From the NCBI RefSeq assembly GCF_042660085.1, contig NZ_JBHSTI010000044.1, forward strand, positions 1 to 20,282: a stretch of 20,282 bases of DNA, written 5' to 3'. Shown piece after piece: positions 453 through 19,552 of this stretch. A program made the translations under genes and the position numbers. Each line of letters starts with the position of its first letter. Position 1 is the first letter of the stretch. The stretch comes from Longivirga aurantiaca. GTDB taxonomy: Bacteria; Actinomycetota; Actinomycetes; S36-B12; CAIYMF01. The notes beneath the pieces were generated by a model. The model saw only the letters and a program-made list of their open reading frames with translations. It was not told the DNA's origin and did no database searches.

Positions 453-1562
453 TCAGCCGCCGAGCTTCTTGCGGGCGAGCTCGGTGCCGGCCGCCAGCGC
501 GTGCAGCTTGTCGATGGCGATGTAGCGCTGGAGCAGGATCAGACCGCAGTCGGTCGTGACGCCCAGGCGCTCCGGCGGCACGTACTCCGCCAGGCGCATG
601 ATGCGGTCGCAGACCTCCTCGGCCGTCTCGGTGATCGTCGACTTCACGTCGATCACGCCGGCCCAGAACATCACGTTGTCCGGGAGCGGGTGCTCCTTGA
701 GCACGTCGAGTCCGGAGAGGTCGTCCGAGCGGCGCCCGCAGTTCTCGAGGTTGAGGACGTTGATGTTCGCCTCGTAGGACTTCGGCACCACGGACGAGGT
801 CGCCGTGGGGGCCGCGCCCTTGCGCTGGGTGAGGTCGAAGATCTCGCCCGACTCCGCCGTCTCGTCCGGGTAGTACGCCGGCGTACCGCCCCAGTTGCCC
901 CAGCAGACGTGCACGATGATCTGCGCGTTCTTGACGCCCTGGACGGCGCGGTTGAACGCCTCGATCGCCCAGTCCTCGTAGAAGTAGGGCCAGGTGAACT
1001 CGTCGAGCTGGATGAAGTCGATGCCCATCGCGTCGACCTCGAGGATGTCCTCGTTGATCGCCGCGGCCATCGCCATCGCCCGGTCGCGCGGGTTGTCGTA
1101 GTACAGGTCGTTGGTGCACTGGGCCAGCACCTGGATGCCCGTGTACTGGATCTTGGTCGGCTTGTTCGTCGCCTTCTTCAGCGCGCGGGCCTGCTCGACC
1201 ATGATCCCGCCGCGGCGCTTGATCTCCTGCGTCACGGTGCCGGCGTGCAGTCGGCTGTAGATGGGGAACCCGAGGTGGCCGCCCTTGAGGTCGTACCCCA
1301 GCCGCTTCATGTAGTAGTAGACCGCTGCGTCCGCGTAGTTGTCGCCGTGCAGACGACCGTCCGAGATGATGTCCAGCCCGGCGCTCTCCTGGTCGTGCGC
1401 GATCGACGAGATGGCGTCCTCGAACGCCTCGCGGATGAAGGCGTCCGGCGGCTCCTGGTCACCGCGCCAGTCGCGGGCGGGGCCTGCGTCCCACCACCGC
1501 GGGTTGGGGTAGTTCCCGACCATCGACGTCGGGATGAGGATCTCCTGGTCTCCGACTCTCAT
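453..1562 (-). CDS. etnE: Epoxyalkane:coenzyme M transferase (2-hydroxyalkyl-CoM lyase), MetE-like zinc enzyme
   Basis: Cobalamin-independent methionine-synthase-fold protein of about 369 aa with zinc-ligand motifs IIVHVCWGNWGG (H-x-C) and VTTDCGL. Overall similarity as I recall it to XecA/EtnE (MVGNYPNPRWW..., DIISDG, IQLDEFTWPYF). I chose ATG at 1562 because GAGGAG (1576-1571) sits 8 nt upstream. The track's GTG at 1571 overlaps that RBS. Confidence 0.88.
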   Translation of the reverse strand: MRVGDQEILIPTSMVGNYPNPRWWDAGPARDWRGDQEPPDAFIREAFEDAISSIAHDQESAGLDIISDGRLHGDNYADAAVYYYMKRLGYDLKGGHLGFPIYSRLHAGTVTQEIKRRGGIMVEQARALKKATNKPTKIQYTGIQVLAQCTNDLYYDNPRDRAMAMAAAINEDILEVDAMGIDFIQLDEFTWPYFYEDWAIEAFNRAVQGVKNAQIIVHVCWGNWGGTPAYYPDETAESGEIFDLTQRKGAAPTATSSVVPKSYEANINVLNLENCGRRSDDLSGLDVLKEHPLPDNVMFWAGVIDVKSTITETAEEVCDRIMRLAEYVPPERLGVTTDCGLILLQRYIAIDKLHALAAGTELARKKLGG

Positions 1563-1846
1563 TGCATGCACTCCTCGGTCTTTGCCGGACCGCCGCTCGG
1601 GCGTCTCGGGCGACTGGGGTGGGGCTGACGGTCCGGAGGGTGAGCAGGAGCTCCCGTTCGAGGTGACCGTCCGACCGGAACGTAGACCGCACAGGCATGC
1701 GTCAGCCGCGTGCGCACGGGCCAGAGTCCGGCGCGGATTTCGTCCTGCTGGGCCAGGACACCTGGGCAGGGGAGCGCGTGATACTCGCCCTGCCGCGACG
1801 CGGCTGCACCTCGGGCAGCCGCCGCACCGGGGTCGGAGGAGGACGC
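1563..1846. promoter_or_regulatory. Divergent intergenic control region between the transferase gene and comA
   Basis: 284 nt of non-coding spacer between two divergently oriented starts, so it must hold both promoters. No convincing -10/-35 or operator could be assigned by eye. Confidence 0.4.
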
Positions 1847-2701
1847 GTGTCGACGCAGATCGGTCCAGGGTTCCTCTCGCTCCCTCCTCGGTCCCACAAG
1901 CCGCGCGTCGACGGCCTCACGCACGTGCTCGACAAGGGCCTCTCGATGGTCGGCCTCGAGTCGCTGCTGGCAGCGGCGGGCGACTCGGTCGACATCATCA
2001 AGCTGGGGTGGGGCACGGCGTACGTGTCGGACGGCGTCAAGGCGAAGGTCCGCGTCGCGCGCGCGGCCGGGGTGCACATGTGCCCGGGCGGCACGCTCCT
2101 GGAGATCTGCGACCGGCAGGGCCGCGTCGAGGACTACGCGCGGTGGATGCACCGGCTCGGGATCACCCACGTCGAGGTCTCCAACGGTGCCCTCGGCATG
2201 GAGGCGTCGCACAAGCGCGAGCTCATCCGCCGGCTGGCGCAGGAGTTCACCGTGCTCTCCGAGTGCGGCTCCAAGGATCCCGGCGTCGATGTCGTCGCCG
2301 ACGCCTGGGTCGAGGAGATGTCCGGCGATCTCGAGGCGGGTGCGTCGTTGCTGATCGCGGAGGCGCGCGAGAGCGGCACCGTCGGCCTCTACGAGCCCAA
2401 CGGCGAGGTGCGGGCCGAGCTGGTCGAGGCGATCGTGACCGCGCTCCCGCCCGGGCTCGTGATCTTCGAGGCACCGCGCAAGGACCAGCAGGCGTGGTTC
2501 GTGCGCCGGCTCGGCGCGGTCGCCAACCTCGGCAACATCCCGACCGACGAGGTGATCGCTCTCGAGACCCTGCGCCTCGGCCTGCGGTCCGACACCCTCG
2601 ACCTGCTGCCCGACGTCCCCCTCGACCAGGGACCGACCTCACCCGGCATCCGGTCGGACAAGGCGACCCACCTCACCCACGCGAGGCCGGCGACCGCCTG
2701 A
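1847..2701 (+). CDS. comA: (2R)-phospho-3-sulfolactate synthase (ComA / XcbB-type), first step of CoM biosynthesis
   Basis: GTG at 1847 is preceded by GGAGGAGGA (1835-1843). Product contains LPPRSHKPRVDGLTHVLDKG, DIIKLGWGT, VEVSNG, EARESGT, FEAPRKDQQ and NLGNIPTDEVIALETLRLGLRSDT, which match ComA/YitD family blocks. The track ORF start at 1697 is rejected as an upstream extension. Confidence 0.9.
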   Translation: MSTQIGPGFLSLPPRSHKPRVDGLTHVLDKGLSMVGLESLLAAAGDSVDIIKLGWGTAYVSDGVKAKVRVARAAGVHMCPGGTLLEICDRQGRVEDYARWMHRLGITHVEVSNGALGMEASHKRELIRRLAQEFTVLSECGSKDPGVDVVADAWVEEMSGDLEAGASLLIAEARESGTVGLYEPNGEVRAELVEAIVTALPPGLVIFEAPRKDQQAWFVRRLGAVANLGNIPTDEVIALETLRLGLRSDTLDLLPDVPLDQGPTSPGIRSDKATHLTHARPATA

Positions 2702-2737: not shown

Positions 2738-3700
2738 TCAGACGGTGAACAGGGTCGGTGCGCCACCGCTCACGAGGAACACCACCGGGCCTTCGACGGC
2801 GCCGTCGCGCGCCCGGGCCAGCAGGCCGGCCATGGCCTTGGCCGCGAACACCGGGTCGAGGAACACGCCCTCGGTGCGGGCCACGAGCTCTGCGGCCTCG
2901 TCACCCTCGGGTGAGCGGACTCCCTTGGCGGGGCCGAGGAAGCCGTCGACGATGTTGACCTGCAGGTCGTCCGACGGTACGTCGATCAGCGCGCAGGCGT
3001 CGGCGGCGATCCGCCTGACGCGCTCCGCGCACTCCGTCGCCGGACGGCTGACCGTGACCCCCACGACCTCGTGGTCGAGCGCCAGCCAGGCCCGGCCCGC
3101 GACCAGGCCCGCCTGGGTGCCGCACGAACCCGTGGCGAGCCACAGCTGTCGCGGCTGCAGCCCGGCCTCGCGCACCTGCGCGTCGATCTCCGCCGTGGCC
3201 TGCACGTAGCCCAGGGCGCCGAGCCCGGTGGCCCCACCGCGGTGCACGCCGTACGGGGTGAGGCCTTCGGCCCGAAGCCGCTCGCACATGTCGTCGACGC
3301 CGCGATCGGCGGAGGCGCGGTCGTTGTCGCCGGTGAAGTGCAGGCGCGCACCGGCGAGCAGCGCGAGCGCGTGATTGCCCACGGGGCCCTCGCGGGGCGG
3401 GTCGCCGAAGCTCACGAGGGTGGAGCCGAGGCCGCGCGTGCGCGCCGCGAGCGCGGCGAGCATCGCCCAGTTGCTCTGCGGCCCCCCGGCCGTGACGAGA
3501 TGGTCGCAGCCCTGCGCCAACGCGTCGGCGAGCAGGTACTCCAGACCGCGCACCTTGTTGCCGCCGAGACCGAGGCCCGTCAGGTCGTCCCGCTTGAACC
3601 AGACCTCGACGCCGATCCGGTCGGACAGCCGGGGGGCCGGATGCAGCGGGGTGGGGAGGGTCGCGAGCCGGACTCGGGCGACGTCCGCGAGATCGGCCAT
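2738..3700 (-). CDS. PLP-dependent enzyme of the ACC deaminase / D-cysteine desulfhydrase family (XcbE-like, CoM biosynthesis)
   Basis: MADLADVARVRLATLPTPLHPAPRLSDRIGVEVWFKRDDLTGLGLGGNKVRGLEYLL... carries the GGNK PLP-lysine block and the SNW/TxGS-type motifs of fold-type II PLP enzymes. ATG at 3700 lies 2 nt after the upstream TGA (3703-3705). The 453-aa track version is an artefactual N-terminal extension. Confidence 0.85.
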   Translation of the reverse strand: MADLADVARVRLATLPTPLHPAPRLSDRIGVEVWFKRDDLTGLGLGGNKVRGLEYLLADALAQGCDHLVTAGGPQSNWAMLAALAARTRGLGSTLVSFGDPPREGPVGNHALALLAGARLHFTGDNDRASADRGVDDMCERLRAEGLTPYGVHRGGATGLGALGYVQATAEIDAQVREAGLQPRQLWLATGSCGTQAGLVAGRAWLALDHEVVGVTVSRPATECAERVRRIAADACALIDVPSDDLQVNIVDGFLGPAKGVRSPEGDEAAELVARTEGVFLDPVFAAKAMAGLLARARDGAVEGPVVFLVSGGAPTLFTV

Positions 3701-3702: not shown

Positions 3703-5061
3703 TCACCCCGTCGCGGCGTGCGGCGCGAGGACCCGATCGACGAACGCACCCGTGGCGCCCAGCGCGGCCCGAGGGTCGAGCGCGGCGGCGAGATCCTCCT
3801 CCGACAGCCCGGACGGCCCGACGAGACCCGCCTGCCGCAGCGCCGTCGCAAGATCCACCTGCTGCTCGACGCCGGCCATCGTCGCGGCGTACACCTGCTC
3901 GTGCGCGACGTGCTTGCCGAGGCGACCCGCGAGGAGCCGCATGACCGGCTCGGACATGGGATACCCGCGCTGCGCGTCGAGGTTGGCGCGCATGCGGGGC
4001 TCGTTCACCTGCAGCCCCTCGAGCAGGCGTCCGGCGAACGAGAGCGCAGCGCCGGTGAGGAGACAGGCTTCCGGCAGCCAGAGCCACTCCGCCTTCCACC
4101 CACGTCCGTCGCGCTCGTGCAGCGCCACGAGCCCCTCGAGCGCGGTGCCGGCGTCCGCACGGACGCAGCGCGCCAGCGTGTCGAGGTGCTCGGCCAGCTC
4201 GGGGTTCCGCTTGTGCGGCATGGTGATGCTGCCGACCTGGCCCGGGGTGAACGGCTCGGCCAGCTCACCGATCTCCGGCCGCTGCAGCTCGTAGATCTCG
4301 TTGCCGATCTTGCCGAGAGTCCCCGTGACCATGGCGAGGAGCGTCGCGAACTCCGCAAGCCGGTCCCGGGCCGTGAGCCACGGCATGTCCGGCACGCCGA
4401 GCCCGAGCTGGTAGGCGAAGTCGTCGAGGAGCCCCGGGCCCTGCTCGCCCCAGAACTCGAGGGTTCCGAGGGCACCTCCGAGCTGCGCGACCTGCAGGCG
4501 CGGGCGTGCCTCGGCCAGCCGGACGAGGTGGCGGTCGAGCTCTCCCACCCAGACGGCGGCCTTGTAGCCGAAGGTGATCGGCAGGCCCGGCTGGCCGTGG
4601 GTGCGCCCGCACATCAGGGTGTCGCGGTGCCGGCGTGCGAGGGCGACGGCGGCGTCGCGGCAACGGGCGACGTCGCGCTCGACGATGTCGAGGACGTCGC
4701 GCATGACGAGCGCGAACCAGGTGTCGGTCACATCCTGGACGGTGGGGCCGACGTAGACCCACTCCGCGCACGACGGCGGCAGGACGTCGCGCAGCACGCG
4801 GATCAGCCCGAGCGTGGAGTGCCCGGTGGCCCGGGTCTCGGCGGCCACCCGCTCGAGGTCGAGCAGCTCCACGCGTGCGTGCCGGGCGATCTCCTCGGCC
4901 GCCTCGGCCGGGACGATCCCGTGCGCGGCCTGCGCCCGCGCGAGCGCCACGAGGATGTCGAGCCACCGCGCCGTGCGCCCCTCGTCGTCGAGCAGGGCCC
5001 GGACCTCGTCGGTCGACCAGAGGTGACGGTAGACGGCGGAGTCCGGGGGCAGCGCCGTCAT
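3703..5061 (-). CDS. Aspartase/fumarase-superfamily lyase, adenylosuccinate lyase / carboxymuconate cycloisomerase-like (XcbC-like candidate)
   Basis: 452 aa with the superfamily signature GSITMPHKRNP and typical N-terminal helices (VYRHLWSTDEVRALL...LDILVALARAQAAHGIVP). ATG at 5061 overlaps the upstream stop as ATGA (5058-5061). Confidence 0.85.
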   Translation of the reverse strand: MTALPPDSAVYRHLWSTDEVRALLDDEGRTARWLDILVALARAQAAHGIVPAEAAEEIARHARVELLDLERVAAETRATGHSTLGLIRVLRDVLPPSCAEWVYVGPTVQDVTDTWFALVMRDVLDIVERDVARCRDAAVALARRHRDTLMCGRTHGQPGLPITFGYKAAVWVGELDRHLVRLAEARPRLQVAQLGGALGTLEFWGEQGPGLLDDFAYQLGLGVPDMPWLTARDRLAEFATLLAMVTGTLGKIGNEIYELQRPEIGELAEPFTPGQVGSITMPHKRNPELAEHLDTLARCVRADAGTALEGLVALHERDGRGWKAEWLWLPEACLLTGAALSFAGRLLEGLQVNEPRMRANLDAQRGYPMSEPVMRLLAGRLGKHVAHEQVYAATMAGVEQQVDLATALRQAGLVGPSGLSEEDLAAALDPRAALGATGAFVDRVLAPHAATG

Positions 5062-6017
5062 CGGCGGCCCCCCTCCAGCACGGGGTCGACGGTCGACGGG
5101 CCCGCAGCCGAGGGCGAGACGCCCTGCACGGCCTCGGGCGCCAGCGGCAGCAGCATGTGCCGCAGACCCTCGCGCACCTCGTCCAGGTTCGTGCCCCAGG
5201 GCACGACCGCGCGGGTGGCGTCGACCTCCAGCCCGCGTTCGATGAGGCAGCACTTCGAGAGGGTGAGCTCGCCCGGTGCCGCGGGCTCGGCCTCGGCGCG
5301 CTTGCGGGGGCAGAGCTCGACGCGCGGCGGCTCGTCGCCGTAGAAGTGCCGGTGGAACTGCAGCGAGCGCTCGCAGCCGATGAGGGTCCAGTCGCCGCGC
5401 TCTGCCGGCCGGGTGTCGAGGAACGAGACGGGAGCGCCGAGCTCGGTGCCCGAACCGCGGCACGGCAGGAGGTACCCGGCAGCGGGGTTGGCCGCCGCGA
5501 GGTCGTGCACGTCGACGGCGTCGAGCACGAGGTTCACCGGTGGCAGGTCCTCGTCGTAGGCGATCACCTGCTGCGCCTGCGCGAAGAGCTTGGGCGGGTA
5601 GGGCGGCACGACCTCGGTGACCCTGACCGTGATGGGGGCGGGCTCCCAGAGGAAGTTGACGTGCTCGAACCGGCCGAGCACCACGGTCACCCGAGCACCG
5701 GGGACCGCTGCGGCAGCCAGCGACGTCGCGTTGCCGACGTCGGTCTCCGGGCTCTCGACCCAGGCCGTCTCGTCCGGTCCGGCGAGCAGCCGGGCCTCGA
5801 CCACGGGCGAGAACAGCGGCTCCAGGCTCTCCTTGCGCACGGCTACGAGCGCCGTGGCGCCGTGGGACCGCAGCGCGAGGTAGTCGGTGCGCCGGTACAC
5901 CTCGCGGCCGAGGAGGTAGTCGAGCACGGCCTCCTCGGTCAGCGGGAAGTCGACCTCCTGGACCGACAGCCCGCGGTAGGGGTTCGCCCGGGTGTTCGGT
6001 GCAGGCGTGGGGATCAC
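5058..6017 (-). CDS. Hypothetical 319-aa protein, Cys-rich C-terminal half, no family recognised
   Basis: GTG at 6017 is preceded by AGGAG, which overlaps the upstream TAG stop (TAGGAGCCCTCGTG). The stop overlaps the next start (ATGA). Composition is plausible and third-position GC is high. Five Cys (C186, C215, C236, C256, C257) and HRH (222-224) fall within about 70 residues. Confidence 0.7.
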   Translation of the reverse strand: MIPTPAPNTRANPYRGLSVQEVDFPLTEEAVLDYLLGREVYRRTDYLALRSHGATALVAVRKESLEPLFSPVVEARLLAGPDETAWVESPETDVGNATSLAAAAVPGARVTVVLGRFEHVNFLWEPAPITVRVTEVVPPYPPKLFAQAQQVIAYDEDLPPVNLVLDAVDVHDLAAANPAAGYLLPCRGSGTELGAPVSFLDTRPAERGDWTLIGCERSLQFHRHFYGDEPPRVELCPRKRAEAEPAAPGELTLSKCCLIERGLEVDATRAVVPWGTNLDEVREGLRHMLLPLAPEAVQGVSPSAAGPSTVDPVLEGGRR

Positions 6018-6025
6018 GAGGGCTC

Positions 6026-7603
6026 CTAGAGGTTGCGGAGGTTGGCGTTCCCCGCCCGCAGGCGCGACAGCTGGACGAAGTGCTCGGGGTTGAGGAACAG
6101 CTCGTTCATCCACCCCAGTGTGTCGATGGTGAGCCCTTCAGGACGGTGGATCAGGTAGTCGAGGTACTGGAACGCGTCCTTGGCGCCGTACCCGACGTGG
6201 TGGGCGCCGAGCACCTTGCGGCTGTCGCCGTCGACGACGAGCTTCTGGAAGCCCGACAGCTCCGGCTTGCTGAACGCGTAGAGCATCGTCCCCTCGGCGC
6301 AGGGCAGCGGCAGGTTCTCGGTGTCGAGGTCCTTCACGGTCGGCGGCATCTGGATGATGATGACGTCGTCGTAGACCTCGCGGGCCTCGGCCTCGGTGAG
6401 CCCGACCCACGAGACCTCGTACGTCGTGTGCAGCGAGTCCGGGTACTCCGTGAAGTCGAACTCGAGGTCCTCGCCCATGATGTTGCGCGCTGCGGTGACG
6501 CCGCTCTTGCGCGCCTTGAACATCTCCATCGGCCCGTCGATCATGTCGCCGATCGCGTAGACGCCCGGCACCGACGACTGCATCCGGTGGTTGACCACGA
6601 CGCGGCCGACGTCGTTCACCTGGATCCCGAGGGCCTCCTGCGCCTGCTGCACCAGCGGACGCTCGCCCGTGCCGAGGAAGACGAAGTCGGTCGGGAGGTC
6701 GACCTCCTCGCCGGTCTCGAGGCGAACCGTGACGCTCGTGACGTGGCCGTCCTCCCCGTTGACCTGGACGGGGTGGGTGCCCTCGAGGATCGTCATGCCG
6801 CGCTTGCGCATGCCGCCGACGACGTACTGGCGCAGGTCCTCGTCGATGTGGTGGAGGCTCTTGGTGCGCATGAGCGGGGAGCGCGACACGATCGTGGTCG
6901 TGCAGCCGGTCGCGTGGAAGAAGGCGCCGTACTCCATCGCCACCTTGCTGCCGCCGATGATGACGCAGGTCTTCGGCTCGTAGTCGAGCTCCTCGACCAG
7001 GGTCACGAAGTCGTGCACGCCCGCCAGATCGAGACCGGGGATGTCGGGCCACACCGGACGTGCGCCCATGCCCAGGACGAGGTTGCGGGCCTTGAACGTG
7101 CGACCCGCAGCGGTGACGGTCGTCGCGTCGACGATCGTGGCGTGCGCGTTGAGCACGTACTCGACGTCGAGCTGCTCCTTGGTCTGCCAGTTCATGAACG
7201 CGTGCGCCGAGCCGCGTCCGGCGCGGAACAGGTTGATGAGGTCGAGGATGCGGGCCCGGTCGGCGTCGAACTTGGGGAAGAAGAGCTCGTCGGAGAACCA
7301 CCGCATCCGGTCGAGCTCCTCGGCGGCCTCGGAGAACAGGTGGTGCGGCACGCAGGCCTGGTGCGGGCACGAGCCGCCGAGGAACGGCCACGCGTCGATG
7401 ATCAGCGGGCGTCCGCCCATCGCCTTCATGTACGCCGCGCCGAAGCGCCCCCCGGCGCCGCCGCCGATGAAGATCGCGTCGTACTCGACCTCGCTGCCGT
7501 CGTCGACGAGGTTGAGGATCGGCTCCGACGACGGGTCGGTCATCGCGTCGTCGATCAGTTCGATCCACTCGCCAAGGTTCGGGTGCTGGTGGCGGATGTC
7601 CAC
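6026..7603 (-). CDS. xecC: 2-oxopropyl-CoM reductase (carboxylating), 2-KPCC-type NADPH:disulfide oxidoreductase
   Basis: 525 aa. FAD fold YDAIFIGGGAGGRFGAAY. Redox disulfide GGSCPHQACVPHH (Cys79/Cys84, nt 7352-7369). C-terminal ELFLNPEHF has Phe503/His508 where ordinary disulfide reductases have the His-x4-Glu dyad, which is the 2-KPCC hallmark. End-to-end resemblance to the Xanthobacter enzyme as I recall it (MEMFKARKSG, GFQKLVVD, HHVGYGAKDAFQYL, LSRLRAG). GTG at 7603 has GGAAGGA 8 nt upstream. Confidence 0.9.
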   Translation of the reverse strand: MDIRHQHPNLGEWIELIDDAMTDPSSEPILNLVDDGSEVEYDAIFIGGGAGGRFGAAYMKAMGGRPLIIDAWPFLGGSCPHQACVPHHLFSEAAEELDRMRWFSDELFFPKFDADRARILDLINLFRAGRGSAHAFMNWQTKEQLDVEYVLNAHATIVDATTVTAAGRTFKARNLVLGMGARPVWPDIPGLDLAGVHDFVTLVEELDYEPKTCVIIGGSKVAMEYGAFFHATGCTTTIVSRSPLMRTKSLHHIDEDLRQYVVGGMRKRGMTILEGTHPVQVNGEDGHVTSVTVRLETGEEVDLPTDFVFLGTGERPLVQQAQEALGIQVNDVGRVVVNHRMQSSVPGVYAIGDMIDGPMEMFKARKSGVTAARNIMGEDLEFDFTEYPDSLHTTYEVSWVGLTEAEAREVYDDVIIIQMPPTVKDLDTENLPLPCAEGTMLYAFSKPELSGFQKLVVDGDSRKVLGAHHVGYGAKDAFQYLDYLIHRPEGLTIDTLGWMNELFLNPEHFVQLSRLRAGNANLRNL

Positions 7604-7607: not shown

Positions 7608-9149
7608 TCAGTCCTTCCGGTCCGGGTCGTGCACGGGGTGTTCGGGTGTGCCGGTCGTCCCGGCGGTCTGGGGGGTGGCCTGCGCACCGTCGCGGGCGAT
7701 GCGGACCAGCTCGACCTCGACGGTCGCCAGCCGCGAACGCTGGTCCTGGGCCGCCGCGAGCCGGTCCGCGGCCGCACGGCCGAAGCGGTCGGCCATGTCG
7801 CCGACGGTGGCGGGGGCGGCACCGCCGATGCCGGTGCGCGTGGCCACGATCGAGACCGGGTCGACCACGTCCGCGAGCTCCTCGGGCGCGATGCCGAGGG
7901 GTGCGCCGAGCACCGCGGTGGCAGCGGCGTCGAGGCGCGCGGCGGTGATGTCGCGGCCCGTCCCGCCGTCGGCGGCCGTCGCGCGCACGGCGTGCGCGAC
8001 GACCTCGTAGGCGCTGCGATAGTCGAGGCCGCGCGTGCTCATCACGTGCTCCGCGATGTCGGTGGCCTGCGTGAACGACGCGTTCAGCGCGCGGCTCATG
8101 GCGGCCTCGTCTGCGCGCAGCCCGCCGACCACGCCGGTCATGAGCCGGGTCGCCAACGTGGCCCTCGACAGGGCCCGCGGCACCTCGCCGTACGCCACGA
8201 TGAGCCCGTCGCTGCGGGCCGACGGGGTTCGGCTCGTGGCCAGCAGACCCGTGAGCCTCCCGATGAGGACGCCGGCATGGGCGCGGACCATGCCGAGCGC
8301 ATAGGGGTTGCGCTTCTGCGGCATCATCACGCTGCTGCGGGCGTGGCCGTCGGCCAGCTCGACCCAGGCGAACTCGTCGCTGGCCCAGATCTCGAGGTCC
8401 TCCGCCAGCTTGCTGAGCGAGACCACGAGGCTCGTCGCGGCGGAGACCGCAGCGACGAGACCGTCCGTCTGCCACATCGCATCGCGGGTGTGCTCGAGCA
8501 CCCGGTCGAAGCCGAGCAGCTCGGCGGCGCGGCCGCGGTCGTAGCCGAGGCGGCCACCGTTCGTGCTGCCCACCCCGGCCGGGCTGCCTCCGAGCAGGTC
8601 CAGCTCGGCGAGGAGCCGCTGGAGGTCGCGCTCGACCGGCGGCACGAACGCCAGCAGGTAGTGGCCGAAGGTCGAGGGCTGGGCGTGCTGCAGATAGGTC
8701 TGGTCGGCAAGGTACGTGGTGGCGTAGCGCCCCGCGGCCTCGCTCGTGGCGGCACAGAATCCGGCTGCCGCCTCGACGAGGTCGAGCACGTCCTGGCGCA
8801 GTCTCAGCCGCACCGCGACGCGCACGGCCTCTCGTCGCGTGCGCGCCACGTGCAGCCAGCCCGCATCCTCGCCGATCTGCTGCGCGAAGCGTCGCTCGCG
8901 GCAGTTGTAGAGCTCGCCGTTGACGGGGTCGTAGCCGAACGCCTCGGCCGGCACGGCGTCGGCCTCCACCAGCACGTCGACGAGCCGGGCCGCCGCCGCC
9001 GCGGGCACCAGGCCCTGCTCGCGCAGCACGACGACGTGCGCGAGGTCGGCCACGTTGAGCCAGTGGTGCAGCAGCGGGGCGTCGTCCACCTCGAGGGCGA
9101 ACCCGGCCTCGACCAGCTCGGGGGCGTAGGACCCCAGCGGCTTCTTCAT
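7608..9149 (-). CDS. Aspartase/fumarase-superfamily lyase, argininosuccinate lyase-like (XcbD-like candidate)
   Basis: 513 aa with signature SSVMMPQKRNP and ArgH-like blocks (TYLQHAQPSTFGHYL, GSPAGVGSTNG). Start at ATG 9149 (MKKPLGSY...). This is the first gene of the five-gene minus-strand operon. It has an unusual Thr/Pro/Gly-rich C-terminal tail. Confidence 0.82.
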   Translation of the reverse strand: MKKPLGSYAPELVEAGFALEVDDAPLLHHWLNVADLAHVVVLREQGLVPAAAAARLVDVLVEADAVPAEAFGYDPVNGELYNCRERRFAQQIGEDAGWLHVARTRREAVRVAVRLRLRQDVLDLVEAAAGFCAATSEAAGRYATTYLADQTYLQHAQPSTFGHYLLAFVPPVERDLQRLLAELDLLGGSPAGVGSTNGGRLGYDRGRAAELLGFDRVLEHTRDAMWQTDGLVAAVSAATSLVVSLSKLAEDLEIWASDEFAWVELADGHARSSVMMPQKRNPYALGMVRAHAGVLIGRLTGLLATSRTPSARSDGLIVAYGEVPRALSRATLATRLMTGVVGGLRADEAAMSRALNASFTQATDIAEHVMSTRGLDYRSAYEVVAHAVRATAADGGTGRDITAARLDAAATAVLGAPLGIAPEELADVVDPVSIVATRTGIGGAAPATVGDMADRFGRAAADRLAAAQDQRSRLATVEVELVRIARDGAQATPQTAGTTGTPEHPVHDPDRKD

Positions 9150-9420
9150 CGTCCGGGACCGCCTCGTCGCGTGCGGGAGCGCGGCCCGGCGCACCGGGGG
9201 ACGAGCGTCGAGGCAGCCGAGGCGCCCGGCGACGCAGGAGCGCTCCGCACGCACTCAGGATCACGATCGCGCCGCTCGGATGGCATGTCCCGACGAGACG
9301 AAGATCCCGCCCCCTCCTGTACGCAGGGGACGTGTGACCGACGAGCCGGCAGGCGCCATCGTTGGCTGGCGGCCAGACCCCTCCACCGGACCGGCTCGTG
9401 GCCACGACCGAGGAGGAACG
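9150..9420. promoter_or_regulatory. Divergent intergenic control region between the five-gene operon and the MDR reductase gene
   Basis: 271-nt spacer between divergent starts at 9149 (-) and 9421 (+). It contains no credible ORF. The function is inferred from gene geometry only. Confidence 0.4.
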
Positions 9421-10407
9421 ATGCCCGACGGCACGATGCTCGCAGCGCTCTACCGCGGAACCGGCCCGGCTGCCGAGGTGCTCGAGGTCGTCGAGGTCGC
9501 GCGCCCGGACCCCGGACCGGGTGAGGTGCGCGTCCGGGTCGCGGTGTCGGGCATCAACCCCACGGACGTGAAGAACCGCGCGGGGATCATGACCTGGCCG
9601 ATCGACGGCTTCCAGGTGCCCCACCACGACGGCGCCGGCACCATCGACGCGGTCGGACCGGGTGTGGATCCGGGACGGATCGGCGAGCAGGTCTGGCTGA
9701 TGATGTCCGCCCACGGCAACGCGTGGGGGACGGCGGCCCAGTGGTGCGTCGTCCCTGAGTGGAAGGCGCGGCGGCTGCCGCCCGACACCGATCCGCTGCT
9801 CGGCGCCACCCTCGGCGTGCCTGCCGTGACGGCGGCGTACGCCCTCACGGCCGACGGGTCGGTCGAGGGCCGCGACGTACTGGTGCACGGCGGCGCCGGC
9901 GCGGTGGGCCGATGCGGGATCGAGCTCGGCCGGTGGGCCGGTGCGCGGGTGATCACCACGGTGAGCAGCGAGGCCAAGGCCGAGGTCGCGAGGACCGCAG
10001 GTGCGGACCTCGTCGTCGACTACCGGACCGAGGACGTCGTCGCCGCGGTGCGCGGGTTCTCAGCCGGTGTGCACCGTGTGGTCGAGGTGTCCTTGGCGGC
10101 CAACGCCGCGATCGACACCGAGGTCTGCGCCCAGGACGCGGTCGTCGTCGTCTTCGCCACCGATGGCGGTGAGGCGGTGCTGCCCGTGCGTCCGTCGTTG
10201 CTGAAGAGCCTGTCCTTCCGCTTCATCCTTCTCTACAACCTCGACCGCGAGGCCCTCGAGCTGGCGTCGGGTGTGGTCGAGCGCGCGCTGGACGATCGGG
10301 CGCTGACCCTCCCTCCGATCACCCGGTTCGCGCTCGAGGACATCGCCGCGGCGCACCAGCTGCAGGAGAGCGGGCCGTTCGGACGCGTGCTCCTCGACAT
10401 CCCCTGA
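9421..10407 (+). CDS. NAD(P)H-dependent medium-chain reductase, quinone oxidoreductase / zeta-crystallin type (no catalytic-zinc ligands)
   Basis: ATG at 9421 follows GAGGAGGAA (9410-9418). Product: GEVRVRVAVSGINPTDVKNRAG, VLVHGGAGAVGRCGIELGRWAGARVITT (cofactor fold), GRVLLDIP C-terminus. The track start at 9280 is rejected. Confidence 0.85.
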   Translation: MPDGTMLAALYRGTGPAAEVLEVVEVARPDPGPGEVRVRVAVSGINPTDVKNRAGIMTWPIDGFQVPHHDGAGTIDAVGPGVDPGRIGEQVWLMMSAHGNAWGTAAQWCVVPEWKARRLPPDTDPLLGATLGVPAVTAAYALTADGSVEGRDVLVHGGAGAVGRCGIELGRWAGARVITTVSSEAKAEVARTAGADLVVDYRTEDVVAAVRGFSAGVHRVVEVSLAANAAIDTEVCAQDAVVVVFATDGGEAVLPVRPSLLKSLSFRFILLYNLDREALELASGVVERALDDRALTLPPITRFALEDIAAAHQLQESGPFGRVLLDIP

Positions 10408-10417: not shown

Positions 10418-11626
10418 CTACCCGCCGATGCGTCCGGCGATGATGCTCGTGATCACGACCGAGGTGATGGTGACGGTCGAGAAGCCGGCGACGATCATCT
10501 TGGGCAGGATCTGGCCCTCGATGGCCGCGACCTCCTCGGGGGTCTCGCCGGCTCCGCGCGCTGCCTCCTGCGACAGGATCATCGTGCCGGGGAAGCCGTA
10601 GAGGCTCGTGAGCCCGATCGCGACCGACATCGGGACGCTGTAGCCGAGCGTCTTGCCGACCAGCGCCGAGAAGCCGGCGATGCCGACGAGGCCGAAGGTG
10701 AAGGCGAGCAGCAGCGGGAGCGCGAGCTCGGTGACGTCGGACGGCTGGATCGTGGCCAGCGGACCGAACACCAGGATCATGATCGCGATCATCATGAGCC
10801 CGAGGGAGTCGATGCCGCCGAGCACCGACGGCTTGAAGACGCCGAGGGTTCGCAGCGCGACGCCCAGGACCAGGGCGACGACGAACGTGTTGAGCGTGCC
10901 GTTCGTGAGGTTGTTGATGCCGAGGCTGACGAGCACAGCGATGCCGACGACGAGCAGCGTGCCCGCGGTGGTGCGCAGGGCGGGAGGCAGGATCGTCCTG
11001 GGTTCGCCGCCGTCCTCCGTCGCCTCCTCGGGCACGACGAGGTTGCCGGCGCGGTACTCGCCCTTCAGCCGGTTCGCCTCGCGCTTGAGGATGATCGAGG
11101 TGAGCGGGAAGCCGATGAGGCCCTGCAGGGCGGCGATGAGCACGGGGAAGATCGCGATGCTCGTGAGCCCGACGCCGAGCGCAGCCTCCTGGATGATGAG
11201 CACCGAGATCGCACCGCCGCTGAGCGAGCCCGTGCCGGCGATGACGAAGTCGAGGGCCTGCGCGTAGCCGTCCTCGGCGGCGCCGCTGATGCGGCCGCCG
11301 AAGAGGAGGGCGGCGACGTACAGCATGATGCCGATGCCGAGGACCGTCGCGACGCCGACGAGGAACGTCTTCCACTGCTTGATGAAGTCGTCGAGGCTGA
11401 TCATCGTGCCGAGGTGCACGATGATGAACCCGACCACCACGCCCGCCAGGGCGAGCAGCGATGACGCCTGCAGCAGGTCCTCGGGGAAGATCCCGGTCAG
11501 GAAGCCGACCAGGAAGATCATCGACGCGACGAACAGCGACGACAGCAGCGACTTCGTCTTCTTGGCGACGAGGTCGCTGACCGTCCACACGGCCATGACG
11601 ACGACGAAAGCGAGCACCGGGTTCAT
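10418..11626 (-). CDS. Polytopic membrane permease (about 402 aa, two hydrophobic halves joined by a charged linker), family not recognised
   Basis: ATG at 11626 with GGAGG 4 nt upstream. The sequence is almost entirely hydrophobic helices (MNPVLAFVVVMAVWTVSDL...GFSTVTITSVVITSIIAGRIGG) with a central hydrophilic loop (KREANRLKGEYRAGNLVVPEEATEDGGEPR). The 718-aa track ORF is an extension over non-coding and antisense sequence. Confidence 0.8.
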   Translation of the reverse strand: MNPVLAFVVVMAVWTVSDLVAKKTKSLLSSLFVASMIFLVGFLTGIFPEDLLQASSLLALAGVVVGFIIVHLGTMISLDDFIKQWKTFLVGVATVLGIGIMLYVAALLFGGRISGAAEDGYAQALDFVIAGTGSLSGGAISVLIIQEAALGVGLTSIAIFPVLIAALQGLIGFPLTSIILKREANRLKGEYRAGNLVVPEEATEDGGEPRTILPPALRTTAGTLLVVGIAVLVSLGINNLTNGTLNTFVVALVLGVALRTLGVFKPSVLGGIDSLGLMMIAIMILVFGPLATIQPSDVTELALPLLLAFTFGLVGIAGFSALVGKTLGYSVPMSVAIGLTSLYGFPGTMILSQEAARGAGETPEEVAAIEGQILPKMIVAGFSTVTITSVVITSIIAGRIGG

Positions 11627-11722: not shown

Positions 11723-14065
11723 ATGAGATTGATTGAGTACGACGCCACCGACCTGACTCCGGAGGCATGGCGATCGGGTGGTGACGCTCGCGCGTTCAAC
11801 CCGACGATCGCCGAGATCGATGGCGGCTACGTGATCGCCTACCGCGTCGTCCAGGTCGACTCCGACCACCGTCGTATCGCCACCGCACGGCTCGACAGCG
11901 ACCTCGCGCTCGTGCCCGGCAGCGTCGTTGCTCTCTCCGACGAGATCACCTTCGCCGACCCGCACCTCCCCGAGCGCTCGCGGGAGTGGCACGCCGATCC
12001 CATGTTCCTGCGCCTCAAGGGGCGCCTCTACCTCCTCTGGAACGACGGCAACACGCGCCCGTTCAACCACCAGTTCCTCGCCGAGATGACCGACGACGGC
12101 CAGCACGTCGCGGCACCGGCTCGCGAGCTGACGACGGCCGACCGCCGCGAGGTCGAGAAGAACTGGGCCCTGTTCGAGTCCGACGGCGAGGTGTACCTGA
12201 GCTACACCTACCGCCCCCACCGCGTGCTGCGCGTCGACCTGGACACGACCGAGCCGACCCTCGTCGCGACCCCGGCGTACACGAGCGACTTCCCCACCGA
12301 GTACGAGCGGATCTTCGGTGTGGTGCACGGCGGCTCGCAGCCGGTGCGCGTCGGCGACACCTTCGTCACCATGGCGCACTCGAGCTTCTCGCTCCCCGAG
12401 GGCCGGGTCTACCGCGGTGTGCTCGTGGAGTTCGAGGCCACGGCGCCCTTCCGCGTGCGCCGCATGTCCAAGGCGCCGTTCGACCTGCCGAACGCCGCCG
12501 GTGCCGAGTTCAAGCACGACAAGCTGAACCCGAACGTCCACGAGGTCATCTACCCGCGCGGCCTGGTGCGTCACGGTGACGAGTGGATCGTGGCCTACGG
12601 GCTCAACGACGAGGAGTGCGCGATCGCGGTGGTGCCCGCCGCCGCGTTCGCCAGCAGCTTCGGGCCGAAGGTGTCGACGTCGTACACCCTGGGCGCCGAG
12701 GACGTCACCCTGTCGCGGCTCCGGCGCGCGCCCGCGGTGAAGACCGACGGCCGCCAGCTGCCGGTCTTCTGGTTCGACGCGAAGGGTCGGCTCTTCGACA
12801 CCTTCGTCGGCGGCCGACGGTTCGCGACGGGCAACTTCGGCGACATCGCCTCACGTCAGATCGCCGAGCAGCTCTCCGGCGTCCAGGCCCGCACCGCCCT
12901 CCCCGGGGAGCCGCGTCTGCTCGCGATCGGCTCGGTGCTCCACCGTGCGCACGACGGCGACGTCGTCTGGGGCTCGGGCGTCAAGGGCGAGAAGGACCCG
13001 CTGCCCGAGGGCATCGACCTCGATGTGCGCGCCGTGCGCGGCCCGCTCTCGCTCGAGTACCTGCAGCAGTCCGGCGTGAACACCGACCGCGTCACGCACA
13101 CCTTCGACCCGGGTGTGCTCTTCCCGCACCTGTACGCCGCAGAGCTCGCGAAGAGCCCCTCGCGCGGCGGCGACCGGATCATCCCGCACTACCACGACGA
13201 CCTCGAGATGCGTCGCCGTCTCCCGGCGTATTCCGAGTCCTTCGTCTCGGTCGACTGCACGCCGCTGGACATGATGCGTGCGATCAAGGGCGCCGACCGC
13301 GTCTTCTCGAGCTCGCTGCACGGCGTGATCTTCGCCGAGGCGATGGGCATCCCGGCGTACTGGCTGGCGCCGGTCGGCGGGGAGAACGAGCTCAAGTACT
13401 ACGACTACTACTACGGCACCGGCCGCAGGGACGTGAAGCGGTTCGAGTCGCTCGAGGACGCCATGGCCTCCGAGCCGATGCCCCTCCCGACCTTCGACAT
13501 TGAGGGCTACCTCAGCACGTTCCCGCACGACCAGGTGGCGCGGCTGGCGTCCACGTCGGTGAGCCCGGGGCAGCGCTTCGACCTCCGCAACTGGACCGGG
13601 CTGCGCCTCAACACATTCTTCGCGCTCGAGGGCTTCGACCTGCGTGACAGCAGCGGTGTCTGGATGACCTCCACGCGCGCGGCCATCGGCACGGTGGTGC
13701 GTGCCGAGCCCGGCGATCAGGTGGCCATCACCCTCGCCTTCACCCCGACCGACCGCCGGGCCCTGGCCGACTCGCTGAGCCTGCGGGCGCAGGCGAACGG
13801 CGGGCCGGTGCAGGTCGTCCGCTGGCGCAGCGGAGGCACCGGGCGCGTCGAGGTCACGCTCGCGTTCACGGCCACCGCCAAGGACACGCCCGTCCAGCTC
13901 GACCTCGAGCTCGAGGACGGCGGCCCGGTCTCGCGCCGTGGCCCCCGCGACGCCAGGCGACTGGCGCGCAAGGTGCTCCCGTCGGCGATCGCGCCGGCGT
14001 ACCGCGGCGGTCTGCTGTCGTGGGTGCGCGTCTCGTCGGTCCCGCGCGGGAGCCGTCCGGCGTAG
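11723..14065 (+). CDS. Three-domain cell-envelope glycan modification protein: N-terminal propeller-like glycosidase/phosphorylase-type domain, central polysaccharide pyruvyl transferase domain, C-terminal beta-rich domain
   Basis: 780 aa.
- Central part (about aa 340-590): GNFGDIASRQI, IGSVLHRAHDGDVVWGSGVKG, VFSSSLHGVIFAEAMGIPAYWL, matching the CsaB/WcaK-type pyruvyl transferase pattern.
- N-terminal part: AFNPTIAEIDGGYVIAYRVV, ADPMFLRLKGRLYLLWNDG, EKNWALFESDGEVYLSY, resembling DUF377/GH130-like propeller repeats (tentative).
- C-terminal about 180 aa: unassigned. Confidence 0.75.
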   Translation: MRLIEYDATDLTPEAWRSGGDARAFNPTIAEIDGGYVIAYRVVQVDSDHRRIATARLDSDLALVPGSVVALSDEITFADPHLPERSREWHADPMFLRLKGRLYLLWNDGNTRPFNHQFLAEMTDDGQHVAAPARELTTADRREVEKNWALFESDGEVYLSYTYRPHRVLRVDLDTTEPTLVATPAYTSDFPTEYERIFGVVHGGSQPVRVGDTFVTMAHSSFSLPEGRVYRGVLVEFEATAPFRVRRMSKAPFDLPNAAGAEFKHDKLNPNVHEVIYPRGLVRHGDEWIVAYGLNDEECAIAVVPAAAFASSFGPKVSTSYTLGAEDVTLSRLRRAPAVKTDGRQLPVFWFDAKGRLFDTFVGGRRFATGNFGDIASRQIAEQLSGVQARTALPGEPRLLAIGSVLHRAHDGDVVWGSGVKGEKDPLPEGIDLDVRAVRGPLSLEYLQQSGVNTDRVTHTFDPGVLFPHLYAAELAKSPSRGGDRIIPHYHDDLEMRRRLPAYSESFVSVDCTPLDMMRAIKGADRVFSSSLHGVIFAEAMGIPAYWLAPVGGENELKYYDYYYGTGRRDVKRFESLEDAMASEPMPLPTFDIEGYLSTFPHDQVARLASTSVSPGQRFDLRNWTGLRLNTFFALEGFDLRDSSGVWMTSTRAAIGTVVRAEPGDQVAITLAFTPTDRRALADSLSLRAQANGGPVQVVRWRSGGTGRVEVTLAFTATAKDTPVQLDLELEDGGPVSRRGPRDARRLARKVLPSAIAPAYRGGLLSWVRVSSVPRGSRPA

Positions 14066-14079
14066 AGCCTGCGGGGAGG

Positions 14080-14097
14080 CCGGAGCCTCGGCTCCGG
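14080..14097. terminator. Short GC hairpin between convergent genes (possible bidirectional terminator)
   Basis: CCGGAGC (14080-14086) pairs with GCTCCGG (14091-14097), loop CTCG. It sits in the 44-nt gap between stops at 14065 (+) and 14110 (-). There is no U-tract. Confidence 0.3.
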
Positions 14098-14109
14098 GCT
14101 ACCGGTGCG

Positions 14110-16290: not shown

Positions 16291-16390
16291 GACGGATAGG
16301 GACGCTGGGATGTCTGCGTGCGTTCCACGGTCAGGGCGTGGGAGGCCCGTTCCTCGTGCTGGGAGGGGCTCGTCGTGACGTACGCCACGC

Positions 16391-17317
16391 TCAACCGGGC
16401 TGCTGCAGGCCGAGCCGCATGCGGGCGGCCCGCTCGGCTGGCGAGGTCGACGACAGAGCCCACATGAGGATGTCGATCATGCCGCGGGCGGCCCTCACCG
16501 CTCCCGGGCGCTGCGGCAGGCCGAGCAGAGCGGCGTCGGCCGGGTCGAGCGTGGCGGCAGCCGCGAGTGCGAGCACGCGGTAGGGCGCGCGGTAGGCGAT
16601 CGGCAGGTTCGGTGCGCGCAGGAACGCGGCGACGTCCTCGGTGGCGGGGGCGCGGCCGAAGCCGGGGTCGGCGCGGTACTCGTCGAGCTGCGCGCGGAGC
16701 TCGGCCTGCGTCTGAGGGAGGTCGGTCGCGCCGAGCAGCTCGGCCGAGGCCGCCCACTCGGCCACGTACGCGTCGGGACCGCCCGGGATCTCGCGGCTGC
16801 CGAGCGCGAGGTGCGCGGTGAGGAAGGAGTCGGTGAACGCGTCGTGCACCCAGCGCAGCAGATCCGGGTCGGACGCGGAGTAGGGCCGGCCGTCCGGGCC
16901 GGTGCCCGTGACGCGCTCGTGCATGCTGCGCACTGCGGCGGCCGTCGCCTGCGCGGTGGCGACGTCGGCGAAAGTCGTGATCACGAGCCACTGCGTCGTA
17001 CGCCGGAGCCGCCCGATGGTGTCGGTGCGGTACGCCGAGTGCTCGGCGACGCCGGTGACCGCGCCCGGCTGCAGCGCCTGCATCATGAGCGCGCGCACGC
17101 CGCCGACCAGGGTGCTGAGGGAGCCGTGCACGACCCACGAGGGGCCGTCGGGCTCGACGAGGCAGTCGGCGTCGCCGGTCGCGATGCGTGCCACCCACGG
17201 AGGCGTGCCATTCGGGTCGCCCGACAGGAGCGTGCGGAACATGCGGGCGACGAGCGGCACGTTGGCCTGCGGGACCTGCAGCGGCTCGGAGGCGGGGCTG
17301 AGGTCCGACGCGGTCAT
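16391..17317 (-). CDS. DUF2236 / MpaB-like oxygenase-family protein
   Basis: 308 aa from ATG 17317. Blocks VRALMMQALQPGAVTGVAEHSAYRTDTIGRLRRTTQWL, VRSMHERVTG, YSASDPDLLRWVHDAFTDSFL fit the DUF2236 pattern as I recall it. The 388-aa track version is an extension. Confidence 0.75.
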   Translation of the reverse strand: MTASDLSPASEPLQVPQANVPLVARMFRTLLSGDPNGTPPWVARIATGDADCLVEPDGPSWVVHGSLSTLVGGVRALMMQALQPGAVTGVAEHSAYRTDTIGRLRRTTQWLVITTFADVATAQATAAAVRSMHERVTGTGPDGRPYSASDPDLLRWVHDAFTDSFLTAHLALGSREIPGGPDAYVAEWAASAELLGATDLPQTQAELRAQLDEYRADPGFGRAPATEDVAAFLRAPNLPIAYRAPYRVLALAAAATLDPADAALLGLPQRPGAVRAARGMIDILMWALSSTSPAERAARMRLGLQQPG

Positions 17318-17408
17318 GCCTCCACCATGCCCGACTGCGCAGGGGATGCAATTCGGCCACCTGCACGGTGGCGCGCGGCCGCGCGCCCGCGACCGGCATG
17401 ATCGCGGC

Positions 17409-18443: not shown

Positions 18444-18498
18444 TCCTCTGCCGGCGGTCAGGGCTGGGAGACGACGAGGCCGGCCTGCGAGGACTCAC

Positions 18499-18969
18499 GT
18501 GTGCGACGGGTTCCGAAGAGTGTGGACATGGTTCCTGCTCCTGACGGTCTCGGCAGTGCTGCGGCGCCCCTTGCTCGTGGGGCTGACGGGAACGACTCTC
18601 CTCAGCCAGCGCGTGCGGCACCGTGGCCGCGGCGACCGTCGTACCGTCGTCGTGCTGACAGAGGTCACCGCCGCTGCACCGTGCGGGCAGGTCCGGCTCG
18701 TGGACGTCGACGGCTCGGTGCTGACCGGGCCTGCCGCCGGCGAGCTGGAGGTGTCGGTCGACGGCGTGCATCGGGCCGAGGGCATCGGGGGCTCCGTGAG
18801 ACGAAGCAAGCCGATCGACCGCGGGTCGTCGAGGGAATGCACGTCGACAGTCCACTCGTGGCGGTACCCCTCCGGCCCTCTCTCGCATCGACGAGAGGCG
18901 GCAGTGGAGTGCTCATGGCGCCAGCGCGGGTGGGACACTGATGGTGCAACCCGGATTCACGGGAGGTGA
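18499..18969 (+). CDS. Hypothetical protein with one N-terminal hydrophobic helix (weak call)
   Basis: GTG at 18499 lies 5 nt after GCGAGGA. GNN-rich codons appear in the first two thirds (TVVVLTEVTAAAPCGQVRLVDVDGSVLTGPAAGELEVSVDG). Its TGA (18967-18969) overlaps the GGGAGGTGA RBS of the next gene. The antisense ORF 18495..18938 shares the same GC3 phase, so codon bias cannot discriminate between them. Confidence 0.3.
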   Translation: MCDGFRRVWTWFLLLTVSAVLRRPLLVGLTGTTLLSQRVRHRGRGDRRTVVVLTEVTAAAPCGQVRLVDVDGSVLTGPAAGELEVSVDGVHRAEGIGGSVRRSKPIDRGSSRECTSTVHSWRYPSGPLSHRREAAVECSWRQRGWDTDGATRIHGR

Positions 18970-18974
18970 GTTCG

Positions 18975-19361: not shown

Positions 19362-19493
19362 CGCGCCACTGGTATGCGGTCGACCGGCCGATCGGCTTCC
19401 GCGATCCAAACCGGCGCATGCACCCGCGCCCCATCGGTGGGGTCGTTCACGCCCCCACATCGCACGTGCTGCGGCCCGTGACCTGAGCAAACA

Positions 19494-19530: not shown

Positions 19531-19552
19531 CGTGCTGCTGTCTCAAACAACG

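Follow-up and report, generated by a model that had tools for sequence, protein, structure and literature searches.

A cysteine-rich protein in an actinobacterial coenzyme M gene cluster is probably an ortholog of the iron-sulfur reductase XcbA

Contig NZ_JBHSTI010000044.1 of Longivirga aurantiaca (assembly GCF_042660085.1), analyzed here over positions 1 to 20,282 (the window), carries genes that make and consume coenzyme M (CoM). Among them is an open reading frame (ORF) for a cysteine-rich protein of 319 residues, placed between a 2-KPCC-like gene (KPCC) and a lyase gene. What does this protein contribute to a CoM cluster? An earlier note, made from the sequence alone, recognized no family for it, found no obvious need for it in the canonical Xanthobacter scheme, and suggested sulfur delivery, the hydroxyalkyl-CoM dehydrogenase step, or assembly and protection of 2-KPCC as its role. 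Our analysis indicates, with a probability of roughly 0.88, that the ORF encodes an ortholog of XcbA, the iron-sulfur (Fe-S) reductase that completes bacterial CoM biosynthesis. We document its family membership, its synteny, and the conservation of its cysteines.

The protein is in fact covered by two curated family models. NCBIfam model NF052538 (XcbA family protein) matches residues 4 to 288 over profile positions 3 to 288 of 293 with 411.8 bits, against a cut-off of 150, and the characterized Xanthobacter XcbA scores 470 bits on the same model. Pfam family PF24830 (DUF7714) matches residues 11 to 288 with E=2.2e-85 and 286.6 bits (cut-off, 25). No Pfam family other than DUF7714 matches the whole protein at E<=0.1 or either half at E<=10, and the XcbA model is the only one returned by NCBIfam.

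Plasmid sequences connect the window protein to the characterized enzyme. A tblastn search matched six plasmid records, namely, pXAUT01 of Xanthobacter autotrophicus Py2 (48.8% identity), pNOCA01 of Nocardioides sp. JS614 (60%; WP_011751526.1), two plasmids of Mycolicibacterium chubuense NBB4 (63-64%), and two of Methylocystis iwaonis (39%). The pXAUT01 match, Xaut_5051 (ABS70249.1), is annotated as a “conserved hypothetical protein,” covers 87% of the query at E=6e-69, and is collinear with window residues 13 to 289. Xaut_5051 directly follows xecA, xecC, and two short-chain dehydrogenase/reductase (SDR) genes, which together form xecA/C/D/E, and is followed by genes for a phosphosulfolactate synthase, two “fumarate lyases,” and a protein resembling 1-aminocyclopropane-1-carboxylate (ACC) deaminase. 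These neighbors place it at the xcbA position of the xcbA-E cluster. Its N terminus, MNKPEKIEPKPIA, also matches the one specified by the primer with which Wu et al. 2022 cloned xcbA (PMC9457059). The earlier guess that the ORF might be one of the poorly characterized xec-cluster ORFs is borne out, and the ORF in question is xcbA. The window gene is thus already known in kind, as the ortholog of a characterized enzyme.

The reaction assigned to XcbA comes from work on X. autotrophicus Py2. XcbB/ComA joins sulfite and phosphoenolpyruvate into phosphosulfolactate, loss of phosphate, catalyzed by XcbC, gives sulfoacrylate, to which XcbD attaches L-cysteine, forming 3-sulfopropionylcysteine, and XcbE, a pyridoxal phosphate (PLP) enzyme, decarboxylates and cleaves the cysteine adduct to sulfoethanethioaldehyde (PMC9457059). 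In the last of the five bacterial steps, demonstrated in vitro with the Xanthobacter protein, XcbA converts sulfoethanethioaldehyde to CoM (Wu et al. 2022, PNAS, PMC9457059). Since that study, the Xanthobacter scheme has ended with a protein of just this kind. Purified aerobically from Escherichia coli on nickel-nitrilotriacetic acid resin, Xanthobacter XcbA is reddish-brown, with bands at 420, 460, and 550 nm that are bleached by dithionite reduction, and its rhombic electron paramagnetic resonance (EPR) signal (g = 2.03, 1.96, and 1.89) is typical of a [2Fe-2S]1+ center with a midpoint potential of -372 mV (PMC9457059). Its authors counted nine cysteines, recognized neither a motif nor a known homolog, and left the cluster ligands unassigned (PMC9457059). 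The literature searched contained no later paper extending XcbA function beyond this study. By analogy with its Xanthobacter ortholog, the window protein would use a [2Fe-2S] center to reduce the C=S bond of sulfoethanethioaldehyde with two electrons and two protons, producing 2-mercaptoethanesulfonate (CoM).

The window has a GC content of 73% and long chance ORFs in every frame. The DUF7714 match and the thousands of homologs (2,523 database proteins at E<=1e-3, forming 480 clusters at 50% identity) identify the 319-residue ORF as a real gene rather than a chance product of GC-rich DNA. The GTG at 6017 is the correct start because homologs begin with MIPxPAPNT and position 3 of the NF052538 profile aligns to window residue 4. 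At the upstream junction, the minus strand reads CTCCGCAACCTC-TAG-GAGCCCTC-GTG over 6040..6005, with CTC directly before the TAG; the xcbA/xcbD junction at the 3′ end of xcbA reads GCCGATGACGG on the same strand. The reading frame, the GTG start, the AGGAG overlapping the preceding TAG, and the ATGA overlap had all been described correctly, and they lie on the minus strand, which had gone unstated. The further claim that the protein is an obligate, stoichiometrically coupled operon member holds in part: tight packing and overlapping codons show cotranscription and make translational coupling of xcbA to its neighbors probable, while a fixed stoichiometry exceeds these data.

The cysteines provide further evidence. 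The window protein contains exactly five, in LPCRGSG, LIGCERS, ELCPRK, and SKCCLIERG, as previously read, with the spacing C-X28-C-X20-C-X19-CC. All five are invariant, along with H119 and H222, in a nine-sequence alignment that includes Xanthobacter and Methylocystis. We extended the comparison to 62 full-length representatives with 27-65% identity, drawn from the 480 clusters. The five cysteines are kept in 56 to 59 of these (about 90-100%, down to 27% identity), and the exceptions are mostly partial-match metagenomic gene calls that are probably frameshifted. In a cleaned alignment of 61 sequences (A2), four of the five cysteines (C186, C215, C236, and C256) never vary, and the fifth, C257, is at least 90% conserved, as is H119. 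Position 119 is His in 58/62 representatives and Tyr in three. H222 and H224 belong to an HRH triad that is present at residues 222 to 224, as reported, and that the family as a whole does not share: position 222 is His in only 21/62 representatives and Phe or Tyr elsewhere, and H224 is kept in 18/62. We therefore rejected the triad as a metal site.

The equivalents of the five cysteines in Xanthobacter XcbA are C207, C237, C258, C274, and C275, and its other four cysteines are not conserved. Because the ortholog carries a [2Fe-2S] center and only these five cysteines are conserved, they are the leading candidates for its metal-binding site. The residues that would supply the Fe-S ligands, and perhaps also a redox-active thiol or pair of thiols, are C186, C215, C236, C256, C257, and His119, the last of which is possibly a fifth ligand or an acid/base residue. 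Together these are one or two residues above the need of a [2Fe-2S] cluster, an excess that would accommodate one or two catalytic thiols beside the cluster. The window protein matches none of Pfam CCG, Fer4, FTR, Fer2, Rieske, thioredoxin-like ferredoxin, or CDGSH/NEET. To our knowledge, its cysteine spacing fits no classical [2Fe-2S] motif (plant or adrenodoxin Fer2, Rieske, thioredoxin-like ferredoxin, or CDGSH/NEET). The proposal of a metal- or persulfide-carrying cysteine cluster thus survives in its metal half, which fits the [2Fe-2S] center of the ortholog; its persulfide half lacks domain support.

The setting of the gene agrees with the earlier placement of the protein in CoM biosynthesis, as an XcbA ortholog amid xcb genes. 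The minus-strand operon runs from the xcbC-like gene through the 2-KPCC-like gene, xcbA, and xcbD to the xcbE-like gene, with a 4-nt gap between the first two, a 4-nt overlap of xcbA and xcbD, and a 2-nt gap between xcbD and the xcbE-like gene (Table 1). The gene downstream of xcbA, formerly called an XcbC-like lyase, takes the current name XcbD from model NF052536, which aligns from residue 4 of the ORF starting at 5061. The 2-KPCC-like gene is 52% identical to the Xanthobacter XecC region. The transferase is 75% identical to the region of Xanthobacter 2-hydroxypropyl-CoM lyase (XecA) and 49% identical to EtnE of Nocardioides JS614, and the GTG of comA is preceded by GGAGGAGGA. The window carries the complete five-enzyme bacterial CoM pathway plus CoM-consuming enzymes; nothing is missing from the pathway, and no new catalyst is required. 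With one packed operon, and comA and the transferase adjoining it, CoM supply is therefore coexpressed with the CoM consumers, and the transferase would use the CoM made by the window cluster.

Table 1. Features of the window and positions of deep-branch XcbA-family loci (coordinates of the latter refer to their own sequences)
Feature	Position	Strand	Details
xcbA coding sequence	5058..6017	minus	GTG start 6017, TGA stop 5060..5058, 319 aa by translation
xcbA protein regions			residues 1-288, DUF7714/XcbA core; 289-319, low-confidence Pro/Ala-rich tail
Shine-Dalgarno AGGAG	6023..6027	minus	5 nt upstream of GTG; overlaps 2-KPCC-like stop TAG 6026..6028; direct sequence reading
ATGA overlap	5058..5061	minus	xcbA TGA (5060..5058) and xcbD ATG (5061..5059), 4 nt in common
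Five family-invariant Cys codons	5247..5462	minus	C186 5460-5462; C215 5373-5375; C236 5310-5312; C256 5250-5252; C257 5247-5249
His119 codon	5661..5663	minus	only well-conserved histidine
xcbC-like, argininosuccinate-lyase family	7608..9149	minus	NF052535 CoM_syn_XcbC 420 bits; Pfam Lyase_1, ASL_C2
2-KPCC-like NAD(P)/FAD disulfide oxidoreductase	6026..7603	minus	GTG 7603, TAG, 525 aa; Pfam Pyr_redox_2, Pyr_redox_dim
xcbD, adenylosuccinate-lyase-family 3-sulfopropionylcysteine synthase	3703..5061	minus	NF052536 712.7 bits (cut-off 600)
xcbE-like PLP enzyme, D-cysteine desulfhydrase/ACC deaminase family	2738..3700	minus	NF052537 325 bits; Pfam PALP
comA/xcbB phosphosulfolactate synthase	1847..2701	plus	Pfam ComA E=2e-80; convergent with xcb operon
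Epoxyalkane:CoM transferase, XecA/EtnE-like, MetE family	453..1571	minus	Pfam Meth_synt_2
Fused GH43-like/polysaccharide pyruvyl transferase	11723-14065	plus	
AT3-SGNH acyltransferase	14110-16290	minus	
MpaB/Lcp-family oxygenase	16391-17557	minus	
Homoserine dehydrogenase	about 17400-18443	plus	
Deep-branch locus L084	7738-8652		
Deep-branch locus L085	3012-3878		
Deep-branch loci L086-L088	8001-8861		
Deep-branch locus L090	8001-8876		
Deep-branch locus L091	6001-6870		
Deep-branch loci L092/L093	6001-6864		
Deep-branch loci L094/L095	6001-6834		

To assess how general this arrangement is, we scanned species-representative genomes (185,579 species) with two conserved peptide patterns taken from the nine-sequence alignment. 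The scan matched 511 stretches, 479 of which encode an XcbA relative, mostly in Actinomycetota (Pseudonocardia, Kribbella, Kineosporia, Actinomycetospora, and Sporichthyaceae). The neighborhoods of 83 loci, comprising the best 80 and three plasmid loci, were then searched by tblastn with the window proteins. Homologs of XcbD (75/83), XcbE (68/83), ComA (67/83), XcbC (60/83), and EtnE (57/83) lie near the XcbA homolog, and most neighbor misses fall on short contigs. XcbA homologs thus co-occur with CoM genes, which was the neighborhood pattern proposed as a check. A KPCC homolog lies within 10 kb in 34 loci, usually on the opposite strand and several kilobases distant. XcbD directly follows XcbA in 75 loci, and a crude ORF-based survey of 79 junctions found the 4-nt overlap in 29 and a gap of at most 20 nt in 26 more. 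The neighborhood counts and the junction survey identify xcbD, and not 2-KPCC, as the conserved partner of xcbA.

The window gene order recurs in six loci of Kineosporia and related Actinomycetota (L005-L009 and L044), and in L004 over the part of the order that its 8-kb contig covers. Two of these are nearest to the window cluster: L004, its second-closest relative (79-91% identity per protein), and L005, from an uncultured actinomycetotal metagenome-assembled genome (MAG) (83-93% per protein). L004 (JAUXQH010000062.1) is binned in a MAG labeled “Pseudomonadota bacterium,” and the other close relatives are all Actinomycetota; the label is probably a binning error. The transferases of the 83 loci fall mostly into two classes of identity to the window transferase, about 74-93% and about 44-50%, with three weaker at 27-30%, a split that points to two lineages of transferase and to exchange across phyla.

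Despite their shared family (NF052538/PF24830), five cysteines and His119, and association with comA, xcbC, xcbD, xcbE, and epoxide-carboxylase genes, the window and Xanthobacter proteins differ in several respects. The window protein has five cysteines against nine, lacks the 19-residue N-terminal extension of Xanthobacter XcbA, and has a 30-residue Pro/Ala-rich C-terminal tail of its own. The genes are ordered xcbC-KPCC-xcbA-xcbD-xcbE with a convergent comA in the window and xecACDE-xcbA-xcbB-xcbC-xcbD-xcbE in Xanthobacter, and the hosts are an actinobacterium and an alphaproteobacterium, respectively. By analogy, we presume the same reaction, sulfoethanethioaldehyde to CoM via a [2Fe-2S] center. 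The hypothetical proteins of JS614 pNOCA01 and M. chubuense NBB4, which are ethene and vinyl chloride degraders and actinobacterial like the window host, are closer (60-64% identity). There too, xcbD and xcbE directly follow xcbA with overlapping stop and start codons; unlike in the window, xcbA is preceded by a comA in the same orientation, the KPCC-like gene lies elsewhere, and the transferase is of the 49%-identity EtnE type instead of the XecA type. A functional analog of XcbA is MMP16/ComF, a metalloprotein proposed as the archaeal CoM synthase that catalyzes the last, thiol-creating step (PMC12068725). Its description sets it apart as a separate marker family (PMC12068725). It also differs in substrate: MMP16 starts from sulfoacetaldehyde and must both insert sulfur and reduce, whereas the substrate of XcbA already contains sulfur.

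The predicted structure is confident and has no significant match in the PDB. The AlphaFold2 model built with the 61-sequence alignment has a mean predicted local distance difference test score (pLDDT) of 94.3 and a predicted template modeling score of 0.89; pLDDT falls to about 60 after residue 290, and the last ~30 residues are disordered. In the model, the N-terminal half is predicted to be beta-rich and the C-terminal half, which would hold all five cysteines, alpha/beta. C215 and C236 each appear between the end of a beta-strand and the start of a helix, C186 in a loop following a beta-strand, and C256/C257 at the end of a beta-strand. Foldseek found no significant PDB match to the full model (best E=7.6e-4; probability, 0.23; TM score, 0.12; root-mean-square deviation, 17 Å), with RsmE/SPOUT methyltransferases recurring and never significant. 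A separate model of the C-terminal domain (pLDDT, 94.7) gave a best PDB match of E=0.22 and generic alpha/beta matches to DJ-1/PfpI, NadA, and O-methyltransferases. Sequence searches of the PDB, whether with the single protein or with profiles of the 61 sequences and of the C-terminal domain, found nothing below E=0.5.

Several points weigh against the XcbA assignment. Identity to the characterized enzyme is only 49%, experiments are confined to Xanthobacter, and the window protein and the other actinobacterial members are known from their sequences. The XcbC-like and XcbE-like proteins score below the cut-offs of their models (420 versus 575 and 325 versus 450 bits), which remain their best hits; these cut-offs belong to narrow “exception”-type NCBIfam models. 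The activity of XcbA comes from one in vitro study, where cysteine could by itself act as the reductant; that study reported no physiological donor, kinetics, or mutants and left the route of the second electron open (PMC9457059). The role of XcbA may therefore be a supporting rather than a strictly catalytic one. Finally, family members with about 27-38% identity keep His119 and the five cysteines while sitting away from comA and xcbCDE, and the conserved site alone therefore does not dictate the substrate.

This deep branch scores 183 to 233 bits on NF052538, above the cut-off, and its hosts are a Chloroflexi MAG, Thermoplasmata/Thermoplasmatales MAGs, Candidatus Methanomethylophilaceae (CoM-using methanogens), and a Thermaerobacter MAG. 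In the Chloroflexi MAG, the XcbA-family gene lies between nadA and a radical-SAM gene. In the Thermaerobacter MAG, it belongs to an MtrH/corrinoid cluster, comes directly after a URO-D/MtaA-like methyltransferase gene, and has DsrE and DsrMK/HdrD-like genes downstream of it. The most distant member found inside a comA/lyase/lyase/PALP cluster has 37% identity. Methanomassiliicoccales are reported to have no comABC genes, to rely on the cysteate/ComDE route, and to keep most methanogenesis markers (Borrel 2014). As this leaves no clear gap, we considered and rejected an archaeal need for XcbA in Methanomassiliicoccales.

Might the window protein be an XcbA-family Fe-S protein whose cofactor or role is unlike the published one, with a labile [4Fe-4S] cluster, a cluster plus a C256/C257 redox pair, or a part in electron transfer only? 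We consider this unlikely, while giving it real weight. The five invariant cysteines, vicinal CC included, and the histidine exceed the four ligands of a [2Fe-2S] cluster, and no Fe-S motif family in Pfam has their spacing. In vivo, the cluster might be an oxygen-labile [4Fe-4S] one that degrades to [2Fe-2S], and XcbA was purified aerobically (PMC9457059). A one-electron [2Fe-2S] couple alone also cannot supply two electrons, and the authors discuss disulfide-based routes (PMC9457059). The EPR g-values and UV-visible bands of the Xanthobacter enzyme argue instead for [2Fe-2S]1+ (PMC9457059), and the window protein has no Pfam CCG, Fer4, or FTR match. In ferredoxin:thioredoxin reductase (FTR) and the CCG domains of HdrB/HdrD, an Fe-S cluster near cysteines couples one-electron donors to two-electron sulfur reduction. 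For XcbA they are a possible working analogy only, given the lack of a CCG, FTR, Fer4, or structural match. A joint reading of the site and the deep branch, which we regard as rather doubtful, is that the XcbA family extends beyond the bacterial CoM pathway as an undescribed Fe-S/thiol reductase module with an older branch, and that the five-cysteine site of the window protein is a cluster plus dithiol rather than a plain [2Fe-2S] ferredoxin-like center.

The roles first suggested for the protein fare much worse. An accessory, assembly, or protection factor for 2-KPCC would suit a gene placed immediately after the KPCC gene, as it is in the window and its closest relatives (L004-L009 and L044). 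Elsewhere the two genes part company: KPCC is near in only 34 of the 83 loci against 75 with XcbD directly after, two SDR genes separate xecC from xcbA in Xanthobacter, xcbA lies between comA and xcbD in JS614 and Methylocystis, and on the Methylocystis plasmid the biosynthesis genes accompany xcbA with neither KPCC nor a transferase nearby. A role tied to 2-KPCC is thus very improbable. We give equally little credence to a sulfur-delivering persulfide carrier or a stand-in for the hydroxyalkyl-CoM dehydrogenase, for which the richness in cysteine and the absence of an SDR gene from the window had spoken. In the published pathway, L-cysteine brings in the thiol sulfur by way of XcbD and XcbE, and the part of XcbA is to supply electrons (PMC9457059). 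Pfam shows no match to rhodanese, TusA, or DsrE (halves at E<=10), and none to an SDR Rossmann domain (adh_short/adh_short_C2) or another nucleotide-binding domain in the whole protein or its halves. The family also accompanies the biosynthesis genes in clusters that lack epoxide-pathway genes, the Methylocystis plasmid being an example.

The window contains no SDR-type hydroxyalkyl-CoM dehydrogenase gene. A gene for a medium-chain (MDR-type) NAD(P)H quinone-oxidoreductase/zinc-dependent alcohol dehydrogenase-like protein (9418-10407, plus strand) lies divergent from xcbC, and is a possible candidate for the hydroxyalkyl-CoM dehydrogenase step; it is conserved beside the cluster only in the two nearest loci (L004 and L005) and in L079. 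Adjoining the cluster at 10421-11626 on the minus strand is a gene for a 402-residue polytopic membrane protein. Neither Pfam, scanned with its C-terminal 380 residues, nor NCBIfam, scanned at full length, gave a match to it, and the 83 loci contain no homolog. The remainder, 11723-20282, is apparently unrelated to CoM.

Identifying the window protein as an XcbA ortholog bears on both the enzyme and the pathway. The nine cysteines of Xanthobacter XcbA are narrowed to five, plus one histidine, as direct mutagenesis candidates for the Fe-S ligands. Automated annotation would label the XcbC-like and XcbE-like proteins as a generic argininosuccinate lyase and D-cysteine desulfhydrase, hiding the pathway in Actinomycetota. 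The XcbA family is common in soil Actinomycetota, and, with 479 stretches recovered by only two patterns, CoM biosynthesis may be wider in bacteria than the “small number” usually cited. Archaea and anaerobic bacteria also carry a deep branch of the family, away from CoM genes. If the joint reading of an older Fe-S/thiol reductase module is true, the proteins of that branch may have different thiocarbonyl or thiol compounds as substrates, or may serve an unrecognized archaeal route to CoM-type thiols.

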